Source: a phage | Sequence record: PX667085.1 | Direction: 5' to 3' (one strand) | DNA: 64,000 nt | In this document: piece after piece, positions 47,968 through 50,035 of the stretch | Numbering within the stretch: position 1 is the stretch's first letter | How the letters are laid out: the number at the start of each line of letters is the position of its first letter | Notes under the pieces: generated by a model | What the model was told of the DNA's origin: nothing | The model's database searches: none | The model's input: the letters and a program-made list of their open reading frames with translations, nothing else | Translations under genes and position numbers: made by a program

Positions 47968-47995
47968 ATAGCAAAAAGCCTCCAATAAGGAGGCT
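47968..47995 (-). terminator. terminator at downstream end of tRNA array
   Basis: AGCCTCC-AATAA-GGAGGCT hairpin followed on minus strand by TTTTTGCTAT. Confidence 0.5.
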
Positions 47996-48110
47996 AATAA
48001 ATACTGTTAATTTGAAATGCTTTATTATAATTGTGCGTTAAGGAGTCGCACCCCTCCATCTTAGAAGGAACCAGGCAAGGTCTTCAAAGATACCGCTGGC
48101 AAGCGATATT

Positions 48111-48189
48111 TGGAGGCGGGAATTGGATTTGAACCAATGATCTCCAGCATATGAAACTGGCGAGGACGACCAGACTCCTCTATCCCGCT
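48111..48189 (-). tRNA. tRNA-Met (anticodon CAT)
   Basis: CCA encoded; T-arm ATTGG-ATTTGAA-CCAAT; anticodon loop TTCATAT; 11-nt D-loop; A1-C72 mismatch. Confidence 0.55.
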
Positions 48190-48195
48190 ATTAGG

Positions 48196-48265
48196 TATCC
48201 CGTGCTGGATTCGAACCAGCATCACAATAAGTTGTGGAACTCTTATCCTGTAAGTCTAACGGGAA
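48196..48265 (-). tRNA. tRNA-like element, possibly degenerate
   Basis: clean T-arm GCTGG-ATTCGAA-CCAGC and 6-bp acceptor, but only 70 nt, no CCA, anticodon arm would need a 10-nt loop. Confidence 0.3.
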
Positions 48266-48267
48266 AT

Positions 48268-48341
48268 TGGTTGTTTCGACAAGAATCGAACTTGTGTCTC
48301 ACGATTATCAGTCGTGGGTTCTACCATTGAACTACGAAACA
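48268..48341 (-). tRNA. tRNA-Ile (anticodon GAT)
   Basis: CCA encoded; 7-bp acceptor; T-arm; anticodon stem CACGA/TCGTG with loop CTGATAA. Confidence 0.7.
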
Positions 48342-48347
48342 TTAAAT

Positions 48348-48424
48348 TGGTCGGAATTGCAGGATTCGAACCTGCGACCCTACGCTCCCAAAGCGTATGC
48401 TCTACCAAACTGAGCTAAATTCCG
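48348..48424 (-). tRNA. tRNA-Pro (anticodon TGG)
   Basis: CCA encoded; 7-bp acceptor; T-arm GCAGG-ATTCGAA-CCTGC; anticodon loop TTTGGGA. Confidence 0.7.
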
Positions 48425-48429
48425 TTATA

Positions 48430-48505
48430 TGGCTGGTCTGTCTGGATTTGAACCAAACCTACGACAGTCAAAGTGTCGTGTGCTACCTGACTACACTACA
48501 AACCA
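48430..48505 (-). tRNA. tRNA-Gln (anticodon TTG)
   Basis: CCA encoded; acceptor with one G-U pair; anticodon stem CGACA/TGTCG with loop CTTTGAC. Confidence 0.6.
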
Positions 48506-48603
48506 ATAAATCATTTAATGAAGGGCAACCAGAAGAGGTGTGAGAGAAGGAGAAAACCATGAGTAAAAGAGAAAGTTTTCTGGCAACCCTTTATTAAATA
48601 ATT

Positions 48604-48677
48604 TGGAGCGTTCTACGAGGATCGAACTCGTGCCGCCGACTTGGAAGGACGGAATGCTACCGCTACACCAAGAACGC
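48604..48677 (-). tRNA. tRNA-Gly (anticodon TCC)
   Basis: CCA encoded; perfect acceptor and T-arm ACGAG-GATCGAA-CTCGT; anticodon loop CTTCCAA; one U-U mismatch in anticodon stem. Confidence 0.55.
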
Positions 48678-48688
48678 CCTACCTCTTT

Positions 48689-48718
48689 ACTATACTACAT
48701 TTTACTATTGGTTGTCAA
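48689..48718 (-). promoter_or_regulatory. tRNA-unit promoter 1 (AACTATTGACAA motif, -10 TATAGT)
   Basis: minus-strand TTGACA at plus 48713-48718, TATAGT 18 nt downstream; directly precedes tRNA-Gly. Confidence 0.45.
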
Positions 48719-48993
48719 TAGTTTTATTGAGTGGGACAGTGACGAGTATCCCATTGGGTGACTAGCCCTACGTTCGGTAAGCTAACTTAAAATAATACAA
48801 AACCAAAGTCAAATATTATTCTTCGTTGCTGTCGATGGGAGAGCCGCTTCTTCTTTTGCCCCATCCAACCCTACTCCGGTCAAGTTTCAGGTAACTCTTT
48901 TTGTGTGATCAACACAATACTAAGAACACTGTCTTTCGAACAGACCTTGTGCACAGGATACGACGATCAATCACAGTGCTCTTAATGTTGTGT

Positions 48994-49068
48994 TGGTGCT
49001 CCCACTCTGAATCGAACAGAGATCCACGGATTACAAAACCGTTGTAATAGCCATTATACTATAGGAGC
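48994..49068 (-). tRNA. tRNA-Thr (anticodon TGT)
   Basis: CCA encoded; T-arm CTCTG-AATCGAA-CAGAG; anticodon loop TTTGTAA. Confidence 0.6.
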
Positions 49069-49074
49069 AAAGCT

Positions 49075-49151
49075 GGGACTCGGCAGGATTCGATACCTGC
49101 AATTCCAGAAGCCTCTTGGCGACTGGGGGTTTACCTTAACTCTACAAGTCC
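49075..49151 (-). tRNA. tRNA-like element with atypical 8-nt T-loop, anticodon unresolved
   Basis: acceptor pairs (6 bp plus one G-U) and T-stem GCAGG/CCTGC present, but T-loop is TATCGAAT and no 5-7-5 anticodon arm found; no CCA. Confidence 0.3.
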
Positions 49152-49158
49152 ATAATTC

Positions 49159-49244
49159 TGGCGATGAGTATAGGATTTGAACCTATATCGTTCTTTCGAA
49201 CACGGATTAACAGTCCGCCGCTTAAACCATTCAGCCAACTCATC
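49159..49244 (-). tRNA. tRNA-Asn (anticodon GTT) with extended 15-nt variable arm
   Basis: CCA and G73; perfect acceptor; anticodon arm GCGGA-CTGTTAA-TCCGT; extra hairpin GTTC-GAAA-GAAC before T-arm; 86 nt. Confidence 0.5.
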
Positions 49245-49250
49245 TTAATT

Positions 49251-49338
49251 TGGTGGTGAGTGATGGAGTCGAACCACCCGAATCGCAATGATAACAGATT
49301 TACAGTCTGCCCCGCTACCCCTACGGAATTAACTCACC
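49251..49338 (-). tRNA. tRNA-Tyr (anticodon GTA), class II
   Basis: CCA, A73, perfect acceptor; anticodon arm CAGACTGTAAATCTG; long variable arm; 88 nt. Confidence 0.7.
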
Positions 49339-49468
49339 TAAATACTAATATTTAAATTCTTTTTAAAATAGCCAGTGTTCACACCACTAACTATGAGTTA
49401 TCGGTAAGATGGTGGAGGCCATCTGCCGAAAGTTTACTCTATTAAAGTAAGCTATATTAAAAAGAACT

Positions 49469-49554
49469 TGGCGGTAGATGTAGGACTCGAACCTACACGC
49501 CGTTTCCGACTACAGTTTAGCAAACTGTCGTGGCTACCATTTCACCAATCTACC
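49469..49554 (-). tRNA. tRNA-Ser (anticodon GCT), class II
   Basis: CCA, G73, perfect acceptor; anticodon stem ACAGT/ACTGT with loop TTGCTAA; long variable arm. Confidence 0.7.
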
Positions 49555-49558
49555 AATC

Positions 49559-49649
49559 TGGCGGAAGGAGGGAGAGTCGAACTCCCAAGGCTCTTTCAAG
49601 CTCGGCGGTTTTCAAGACCGTTTTCGTCGCCACGTCGATTTGCCCTTCC
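49559..49649 (-). tRNA. tRNA-Ser (anticodon TGA), class II
   Basis: CCA, G73; anticodon region CGGTCTTGAAAACCG; long variable arm; exact 5' boundary uncertain. Confidence 0.55.
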
Positions 49650-49657
49650 ATACTTAT

Positions 49658-49687
49658 AATCTAACATAAAATAATGTTAGTTGTCAA
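49658..49687 (-). promoter_or_regulatory. tRNA-unit promoter 2 (AACTATTGACAA motif)
   Basis: minus-strand TTGACA at plus 49682-49687, -10 candidate TAGATT; directly precedes tRNA-Ser(TGA). Confidence 0.4.
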
Positions 49688-49883
49688 TAGTTTTTTAAAA
49701 CATTTTACCATGAATGGTGACTCCACCAACCCCCGTTCTCAACGAACGGTGCTCTTCGAGCATTTATGTCTTCTAATATAACCGTGGCCTTTGTTTATAA
49801 TGTCTGACATACTTGCCTCATTCTCTGCCACCATGATCAGTAGTGGGTTCAAATCACTTGAGCTAATTCATGTTAAAATGTTC

Positions 49884-49958
49884 TGGTGTCTTTACAAGGA
49901 ATCGAACCTTGACTAAGAGTTTAGAAGACTCCTGTGCTATCCATTACACCATAAAGAC
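49884..49958 (-). tRNA. tRNA-Arg (anticodon TCT)
   Basis: CCA, perfect acceptor, T-arm CAAGG-AATCGAA-CCTTG; anticodon loop CTTCTAA. Confidence 0.7.
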
Positions 49959-49960
49959 GT

Positions 49961-50035
49961 TGGTGGCCCTGGCTGGTTTCGATCCAGCTACCTATCGGTT
50001 ATGAGCCGACAGCTCTCCCATTGAGCTACAGGGCC
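49961..50035 (-). tRNA. tRNA with anticodon CAT (Met or lysidine-type Ile)
   Basis: CCA, perfect acceptor; anticodon loop CTCATAA; T-loop reads ATCGAAA (A at position 54). Confidence 0.6.

Follow-up and report, generated by a model that had tools for sequence, protein, structure and literature searches.

Introduction

Long variable arms are, in the textbook account, limited to the serine, leucine, bacterial tyrosine and selenocysteine transfer RNAs (tRNAs). Here we describe an 86-nucleotide (nt) tRNA-Asn gene with a stem-loop in its variable region, carried by a 64,000-nt stretch of phage record PX667085.1 (the window, whose positions are used throughout). The phage is a Phapecoctavirus-like Escherichia coli myophage: 801 nt around the gene (48900-49700) are 99.9% identical to WPEC1 and others, and the window has 39% G+C.

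The nev-tRNAs of nematodes are charged with leucine. Like the allo-tRNAs of bacteria, they combine a long arm with an anticodon that does not belong to serine, leucine or tyrosine (PMC3333845; PMC5389517), as the phage gene does. The nev-tRNAs are eukaryotic (PMC3333845), unlike the phage gene, and in the allo-tRNAs the acceptor/T-stem layout is 8/4 or 9/3 and the identity serine or alanine (PMC5389517), whereas the phage gene has the standard 7/5 layout and the full identity set for the amino acid that its anticodon names.

Phage tRNAs that resist defence nucleases offer a further comparison; they include the Lys, Thr and Asn tRNAs of T5 (against PARIS AriB), a tRNA-Thr (against P2 OLD) and a tRNA-Tyr (against retron Eco7 PtuAB). 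[quoted passage not shown] P2 OLD cleaves anticodon stems, that of tRNA-Asn among them, at CNG motifs in both of their strands (PMC12445682), and phage tRNA-Thr replaces the tRNA that OLD cleaves without inhibiting OLD. tRNA arrays have been seen as putative anti-defence units (PMC12803027). The resistant tRNAs have in common a place in the tRNA cluster of a virulent phage, an isoacceptor targeted by a nuclease and a sequence unlike the host's. The present gene is likewise a cluster gene that supplies a copy of a cleaved isoacceptor, one that by the literature both AriB and P2 OLD cut. The resistant tRNAs owe their escape to substitutions within or close to the anticodon stem-loop, whereas the phage Asn gene differs from its host counterpart in the body and arm only.

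A conserved tRNA-Asn gene with a class II fold

ARAGORN calls tRNA-Asn(gtt), encoded CCA included, on the minus strand at exactly 49244..49159, and tRNAscan-SE calls the orthologue in phage ASO2A tRNA-Asn-GTT (GenBank annotation). The Rfam tRNA family RF00005 matches at 62.0 bits (gathering score 29, E 2.6e-12) over the full model (1-71), with a cloverleaf and a conserved T loop, and places a 12-nt insertion in the variable region. The anticodon is that of the tRNA-Asn isoacceptor, GUU, in a 7-nt loop (CUGUUAA) with U33 and A37, and not the NGA or GCU of tRNA-Ser.

An earlier interpretation made from the letters alone (the sequence-only reading) had described a perfect 7-base-pair (bp) acceptor stem, GAUGAGU/ACUCAUC, with G73 and encoded CCA, a T arm AUAGG-UUCAAAU-CCUAU and an anticodon arm GCGGA-CUGUUAA-UCCGU; all of these are present as described. 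It had also considered that programs might find an ordinary class II tRNA with a different anticodon, and no program gives another anticodon. The 15-nt variable region that it folded as a GUUC-GAAA-GAAC hairpin within an 86-nt molecule is borne out by the minimum-free-energy fold, which is a cloverleaf with this hairpin, and by covariation (see below). The parts of the gene are as follows.

49238..49244, minus strand: 5' strand of the acceptor stem, GAUGAGU; pairs G1-C72, A2-U71, U3-A70 and G4-C69; 0/7 identical to E. coli tRNA-Asn
49220..49235, minus strand: D arm, GCUGAAUGGUUUAAGC; 3-bp stem with C11-G24 and a 10-nt loop, class II type (ARAGORN structure)
49202..49218, minus strand: anticodon arm, GCGGA-CUGUUAA-UCCGU; 17/17 identical to E. 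coli tRNA-Asn
49209..49211, minus strand: anticodon GUU (AAC on the plus strand)
49190..49201, minus strand: extra-arm hairpin, GUUC-GAAA-GAAC; 4-bp stem and GNRA-type loop, directly after the anticodon stem
49187..49189, minus strand: unpaired GAU that separates the T stem from the extra arm; such spacing is typically found in tRNA-Tyr, unlike tRNA-Ser
49170..49186, minus strand: T arm, AUAGG-UUCAAAU-CCUAU (Rfam alignment, structure parse)
49159..49169, minus strand: 3' strand of the acceptor stem, ACUCAUC, with discriminator G73 and encoded CCA

The architecture is not that of class I tRNAs (a variable loop of 4-5 nt and a 4-bp D stem). The variable region of 15 nt (GUUCGAAAGAACGAU) folds into a 4-bp stem with a GAAA loop, and the 3-bp D stem encloses an enlarged loop; a variable region of more than 10 nt with a stem-loop and a D arm of this kind define class II. 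The class II type of the D arm, which aligns with the consensus of our tRNA-Ser model (UGGCcGAGuGGuUUAugGC), had been overlooked in the sequence-only reading.

It is scarcely credible that the gene is a pseudogene or a software artefact. Its fold energy is unexceptional (z = -1.71 against shuffles, a value that is weak alone and uninformative), but three independent programs call a tRNA, the gene is 97.7-100% identical in the listed Phapecoctavirus-like records (BLAST), and compensatory changes occur in all arms across phage families. No open reading frame (ORF) of at least 50 amino acids overlaps the gene in the window. The element at 49244..49159 is a genuine, conserved tRNA gene within a phage tRNA operon.

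A serine-type body bearing the host asparagine anticodon arm

We compared the phage tRNA region by region with E. coli tRNA-Asn(GUU), using a reference sequence that is 100% identical in 5425/5426 complete genomes. The two share the entire anticodon arm (17/17), G26, G73 and all known Asn identity elements. The acceptor stems are identical at 0/14 positions, with G1-C72 in the phage tRNA where the host has U1-A72, the D arms at 8/16 and the T arms at 11/17. The phage D stem has 3 bp and a 10-nt loop versus 4 bp and 8 nt in the host, and the variable region has 15 nt versus 5 nt.

One covariance model was built on 41 Asn tRNAs of class I and another on 35 phage Ser tRNAs, none of them from the window; both alignments are modest. 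Under the Ser model the Asn gene scored 61.4 bits, the best match in the cluster and thus the one closest to the overall tRNA-Ser profile; the phage's own tRNA-Ser(GCU) scored 60.8, tRNA-Ser(UGA) 47.9 and tRNA-Tyr 34.9, and the class I tRNAs of the cluster all scored 42.9 or less. Under the class I Asn model it scored 46.7 bits, below the Met/Ile2, Ile, Pro and Arg genes of the cluster. The sequence-only reading had proposed such a comparison of Asn and class II models and had taken the gene for an ordinary tRNA-Asn that had gained a 10-nt hairpin. The Asn anticodon and the long arm stand; the ordinary tRNA-Asn beneath them is contradicted by the acceptor stem and by the score under the Ser model.

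A position-weight score over 41 body positions, with the anticodon arm, D loop and variable region excluded, came to 27.6 for long-arm Asn, 26.6 for Ser, 25.4 for Cys and less than 14.6 for normal Asn. Because the region comparison, the covariance models and the position-weight score agree, we conclude that the molecule is a Ser-type scaffold bearing the host's Asn anticodon arm. Naming by anticodon masks this Ser-type body in annotation.

The closest counterpart is tRNA-Ser(GCU) of bacteria and phages, with which the gene shares the 3-bp D stem, the long D loop, C11-G24, G1-C72, R4-Y69, G30-C40, G73 and a variable arm with a stem and GNRA loop, as well as the 86-nt length of the phage's own tRNA-Ser(GCU). 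The differences are the GUU anticodon, the tRNA-Asn anticodon arm and A2-U71 for G2-C71. We regard a Ser-scaffold origin as probable for the window's clade, the lineage running probably from a tRNA-Ser(GCU)-like gene through a GCU to GUU shift of the anticodon. Since Ser and Asn tRNAs share G73, one base change in a tRNA-Ser would give a substrate for asparaginyl-tRNA synthetase (AsnRS); because this single change suffices, an alloacceptor shift is a natural origin for the clade. This raises the question of whether alloacceptor shifts from tRNA-Ser are a regular route by which phages obtain new tRNAs.

An origin from the neighbouring tRNA-Tyr by a GUA to GUU change was rejected: tRNA-Tyr genes have A73, the Tyr class does not score on the body positions, and under the Ser model the Tyr gene reaches just 34.9 bits. 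The acceptor stems of the two genes nevertheless differ at one pair only (the 5' strand is GGUGAGU in tRNA-Tyr).

Long-arm tRNA-Asn in phages and tRNA arrays

Homologues were sought in the viral contigs of IMG/VR with the pattern GGACTGTTAATCC-N15-30-GGTTCRANNCC, in which the anticodon stem is fixed as GGACUGUUAAUCC; the counts cover forms with that stem. More than 120 stretches matched, and among those listed were 90 distinct long-arm Asn tRNAs. When the gap was opened to N5-30, 15 of the first 120 viral tRNA-Asn matches (~12.5%) had the long arm. At least three tRNAs were present in the fetched stretch at 111/118 long-arm loci (median 11) versus 55/105 normal-arm matches.

A set of one genome per species (185,579 species) yielded 33 matches to the long pattern, 17 of them real; these are plain counts and not shares of cellular tRNA-Asn. 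Eleven of these 17 cellular long-arm Asn tRNAs sit in arrays that hold 7-36 tRNAs, as in Micromonospora. There was no long-arm tRNA-Asn in 5,426 complete E. coli genomes, and an E. coli prophage as the source was rejected on this ground. Phages and mobile tRNA arrays commonly carry long-arm tRNA-Asn, which cellular chromosomes almost entirely lack; the window's gene is no isolated case but a member of a widespread class.

BLAST of the 86 nt against phage genomes returned 226 records with at least 80% query coverage. Long-arm tRNA-Asn occurs in Stephanstirmvirinae, some Demerecviridae and Karamvirus, with the compensatory stems GUUC/GAAC, GAAC/GUUC, AUCC/GGAU and GUCA/UGAC, in the following arms.

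Justusliebigvirus: GAAC-GAAA-GUUC
Epseptimavirus: AUCC-GCAA-GGAU
Proteus Novosibvirus: GUUC-GAAA-GAAC
Karamvirus (T4-like): GUCA-GAAA-UGAC

The tRNA-Asn of Kuttervirus Maynard is of the ordinary 75-nt form. BLAST alignment lengths suggest the long type for the tRNA-Asn of phage SP15, which has been used experimentally only as a negative control for PrrC.

By body, 109 long-arm Asn tRNAs were classified as 50 normal Asn, 21 Gln and 10 Ser, with the window's clade among the Ser-like. The proposal that all long-arm Asn tRNAs derive from tRNA-Ser was rejected, since Ser-like bodies make up only 10/109.

At least 11 viral contigs hold both a long-arm and a normal tRNA-Asn(GUU), mostly within ~100 nt of each other (L012, L045, L047, L049, L059, L069, L074, L079, L093, L097 and L118).

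No account of phage tRNA-Asn with a long variable arm came to light in the literature, in a search that lay outside most subscription journals and the 1980s work on T5-like tRNAs, and long-arm tRNA-Asn is not among the kinds listed in reviews of unusual tRNAs. The class is apparently undescribed.

Some matches outside phages have other structures. A Saprospiraceae metagenome-assembled genome (L137:5478-5927) has three tandem 128-nt repeats directly upstream of an intact 75-nt tRNA-Asn; in each unit the 5' two-thirds of tRNA-Asn are followed by a hairpin (UCCCGAUAGCUAUCGGGA) and part of a T loop, and the 3' acceptor strand is missing. Matches of a similar kind are L127, L136, L140, L146 and L153. 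In Azoarcus sp. L1K30 (L157:114-200) a chromosomal 87-nt tRNA-Asn has a variable region that is an 11-12 nt direct duplication of CCGUAGGUC; with no hairpin there, a mutation or assembly error is the probable explanation.

Covariation and geometry of the extra arm

Among 32 distinct homologues whose variable region is 15 nt long, each of the four pairs in the extra stem varies on both sides, and the three inner pairs are standard in 32/32, 32/32 and 31/32. Scored jointly over the anticodon, extra-arm and T stems, covariation reached 0.622, compared with 0.145 for shuffles (0/500 reach 0.622) and at most 0.106 for slid registers. Because the pairs of its stem covary, the extra arm is maintained by selection.

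The 75 Asn arms that could be parsed have a stem of 3-4 bp in 69 cases, a GAAA loop in 40 and 3-4 unpaired 3' bases in 62. The arms of phage tRNA-Ser (66 parsed) have a stem of 5-7 bp in 50 and a single unpaired 3' base in 48, and those of tRNA-Tyr have a 3-4 bp stem and most commonly three unpaired 3' bases. With its short stem and 3-4 unpaired 3' bases, the Asn arm is therefore Tyr-like in shape and not Ser-like. The window's gene has no unpaired base on the 5' side of the arm and three on the 3' side, whereas tRNA-Ser mostly has one on each side of a 5-7 bp arm.

Other class I phage tRNAs also bear short extra arms, of 3-4 bp with GNRA loops for the most part and 3-4 unpaired 3' bases, namely Thr(UGU), which is 87 nt long in T5-like phages, Cys(GCA), Trp(CCA), Ile(GAU), Gly, Glu and Gln. 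None was found on Lys (0/71) or Arg (0/87) tRNAs in the same sample. Examples of arm-bearing tRNAs are:

L017:4406-4492
L088:8998-9084
L047:345-428
L019:1347-1430

Among 12 distinct tRNAs with the anticodon UAU (called Ile), seven have a variable region of 21-27 nt, with an AGAU motif in all seven arms:

L023:313-403
L024:1697-1792
L026:9355-9446
L027:6358-6449
L051:7444-7538
L073:3205-3298
L111:5943-6034

Identity elements and predicted charging

The bacterial Asn identity set comprises G73, G34, U35, U36 and A37 (PMC9976931, Table 1), and the phage tRNA has 5/5 of these elements. The bacterial Ser set comprises G73, C72, G2-C71, R4-Y69, C11-G24, a large variable region and G30-C40 (PMC9976931). 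The phage tRNA has 6/7, with A2-U71 in place of G2-C71, a pair that the literature describes as absolutely conserved in bacterial tRNA-Ser.

The trio C72, G2-C71 and R4-Y69 is complete in 106/131 phage tRNA-Ser versus 2/109 long-arm Asn tRNAs; nearly all long-arm Asn tRNAs of the G1-C72 subclass lack either G2-C71 or R4-Y69. Selection against serylation would produce such a broken trio. Among the 90 distinct long-arm Asn tRNAs, G73 is present in 82 (76/90 for normal viral Asn tRNAs) and U1-A72 in 53 (65/90), and their acceptor and discriminator signatures are those of normal viral Asn and unlike those of Ser, Tyr and Leu. The discriminator is A73 in 74/74 phage Leu and 46/47 phage Tyr tRNAs, and the phage Asn gene has G73.

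These features favour charging with Asn and argue against Ser, Leu and Tyr. Host AsnRS would be expected to charge the tRNA through the anticodon and G73. Seryl-tRNA synthetase (SerRS) would be excluded by the loss of G2-C71 together with the short, Tyr-like arm (0 unpaired 5', 3 unpaired 3'), and the leucyl and tyrosyl enzymes by G73. The sequence-only reading's suggestion that the arm may affect recognition by synthetases, modification enzymes and nucleases is a reasonable one at the level of sequence.

The number of Ser determinants bears on a different possibility, that host SerRS charges the tRNA wholly or partly and that some AAC and AAU codons are read as Ser. The top Ser-model score in the cluster and the arm of the phage's own tRNA-Ser(GCU), which is of the same size, point in this direction, as do the literature's account of serine identity as independent of the anticodon and the use of a long arm with G73 or U73 as a sign of Ser identity in allo-tRNAs (PMC5389517). 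We nevertheless consider it improbable. G2-C71 is lost here, the acceptor trio is broken almost throughout the class, and the geometry of the arm is consistently un-Ser-like; a full Asn set and a host-identical anticodon arm would be pointless in a Ser acceptor, and a proteome-wide change of Asn to Ser should be costly. A little less probable still is that the tRNA has two identities at once, a fraction being serylated during infection in a low-level Asn to Ser ambiguity programmed by the phage; the balance between synthetases could then be tuned by the register of the arm and the 2-71 pair. If so, phages would be a natural testing ground for tRNA identity switching between classes. The class raises the question of how AsnRS and SerRS discriminate between tRNAs that differ mainly by anticodon, one acceptor pair and the register of the arm.

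Asn decoding and defence nucleases

The gene is very probably a real, functional Asn decoder belonging to a widespread phage class. On balance we favour, with limited confidence, a fuller reading in which a working Asn decoder has been built on a re-tasked Ser scaffold and is perhaps kept for a body unlike that of host tRNA-Asn. The phage tRNA would read the Asn codons AAC and AAU from a serine-tRNA-type (class II) body. Asn codons number 57.6 per 1000 (~5.8%) in the window's 51 long ORFs; in E. coli their frequency is near 39 per 1000. In the most speculative step, the altered body might let the tRNA escape PARIS AriB and P2 OLD, with an anticodon arm still best suited to AsnRS and the ribosome, and such escape would sustain Asn decoding.

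A role peculiar to this form is suggested by its enrichment in phages and arrays, its coexistence with normal tRNA-Asn in at least 11 contigs and the recurrence of similar arms on phage tRNAs for Thr, Cys and Trp. The best candidate that we can infer for such a role is escape from nucleases to which the body of host tRNA-Asn is the cue; as the reason why the form is kept, it is held tentatively and is open to considerable doubt. Body reshaping might then be a second way of escaping PARIS and OLD, beside mutations in the anticodon stem.

Several observations weigh against this reading. The cleavage site is not substituted: the anticodon arm is host-identical at 17/17 positions, and the AriB site U36-A-A-U-C40|C41 and both P2 OLD CNG motifs are retained. 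Any resistance would therefore have to reside in the body or the extra arm. The T5 tRNA-Asn, which takes part in rescue from PARIS, belongs to class I, has 78 nt and carries a rewritten anticodon stem, and the tRNA-Asn of Bas34 (77 nt) and of Tequatrovirus G50 (75 nt) are also class I; the T5 rescue was accordingly withdrawn as support for the long-arm form. We found no experiment on a long-arm tRNA-Asn in the literature. The best known nuclease target, tRNA-Lys, is without an arm (0/71), and Cys and Trp tRNAs sometimes have one, so the arm tracks known targets poorly. The unchanged cleavage site and the armless tRNA-Lys weaken the escape role. As to origin and charging, only 10/109 bodies are Ser-like versus 50/109 of the normal Asn type, and the Ser-scaffold origin therefore applies to the window's clade and not to the whole class; six of the seven Ser determinants are present, and the arm of the phage's own tRNA-Ser(GCU) is also only 4 bp and GAAA-capped. 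AsnRS is a class II enzyme, and such enzymes reach the tRNA from the side of the variable region, so the extra arm might hinder charging with Asn.

Much of this evidence would fit a simpler history, in which an Asn decoder arose from tRNA-Ser, the arm is needed for class II folding and the value of the gene lies in extra Asn decoding. The Ser-like body, the one-change path from GCU to GUU with G73 common to Ser and Asn tRNAs, and the frequency of Asn codons in the window accord with it; the host-identical anticodon stem gives no sign of adaptation to stem-cutting nucleases, and covariation is expected of any structurally required stem. We consider this history unlikely, though worth serious attention, as the full account. 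Most long-arm Asn bodies are not Ser-like (50/109 normal Asn and 21 Gln, against 10 Ser), so that the arm must recur or persist across more than one background. Of the sampled viral tRNA-Asn ~12.5% are of this form, which is nearly absent from cells; it stands beside a normal tRNA-Asn in the same contig at 11 or more loci, suggesting a separate role, and similar short GNRA-capped arms are present on phage Thr, Cys and Trp tRNAs.

That the RNA is a decoy which does not serve translation, occupying a host tRNA-directed nuclease or another tRNA-binding factor, seems very improbable. The authors of the PARIS study raised competition by viral tRNAs as a possibility (PMC12409363), and a host-identical anticodon arm would make good bait. 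Phage tRNA-Thr, however, supplements the pool and does not inhibit OLD, and the intact acceptor stem, G73, CCA and canonical T loop are required solely for aminoacylation and work on the ribosome.

The class matters as an exception to the textbook rule on long arms: it is large, its arm is under selection and it is essentially confined to phages and mobile tRNA arrays.

The tRNA cluster

The Asn gene lies in a tRNA cluster that was delimited from ARAGORN, Rfam and the ASO2A annotation. The cluster, its less regular members and a match beyond its last tRNA are as follows.

48111..50035, minus strand: tRNA cluster; in the order of transcription Met/Ile2(CAU), Arg, Ser(UGA), Ser(GCU), Tyr, Asn, a tRNA-like element, Thr(UGU), Gly, Gln, Pro, Ile and Met
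49560-49649, minus strand: tRNA-Ser(UGA)-like gene, 90 nt, with an irregular D arm
49251-49338, minus strand: tRNA-Tyr(GUA), 88 nt, 6 nt upstream of the Asn gene
49069-49158, minus strand: tRNA-like element between Asn and Thr
48196-48265, minus strand: weak tRNA-like match between Met and Ile
47970-48024, minus strand: weak RyhB-like Rfam match

The tRNA-Tyr(GUA) gene, missed by ARAGORN, scores 39 bits with Rfam and has a tRNAscan-SE call in ASO2A; in the Mt1B1_P17 record it is entered as 'tRNA-Pseudo-GTA'. The adjacency of Tyr and Asn recurs in Tequatrovirus phages. ARAGORN also missed the Ser(UGA)-like gene. In Rfam this gene comes closest to tRNA-Sec, at 37.4 bits where the gathering score is 47; it is Ser-TGA in ASO2A (tRNAscan-SE) and scores 47.9 under our Ser model.

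The tRNA-like element at 49069-49158 combines an acceptor-like stem of 7 bp with a T arm whose loop has 8 nt, and is without a normal anticodon arm. The covariance models give it 24.3 and 16 bits. It is conserved in Justusliebigvirus alia, where both stems have changed in a compensatory way and 8 nt are deleted from the middle, and it recalls the annotated 'tRNA-like stable RNAs' of T5. The match at 48196-48265 scores 23.2 bits under the Asn model and 19.4 under the Ser model, with no call by ARAGORN or Rfam.

Promoter-like sites at 49687-49658 and 50274-50245 and a terminator-like hairpin at 47995-47977 (all minus strand) are consensus matches that occur no more often than by chance and are uninformative. 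The RyhB-like match at 47970-48024 (29.4 bits against a gathering score of 55) overlaps this hairpin, which follows the last tRNA, and is most likely just the terminator.

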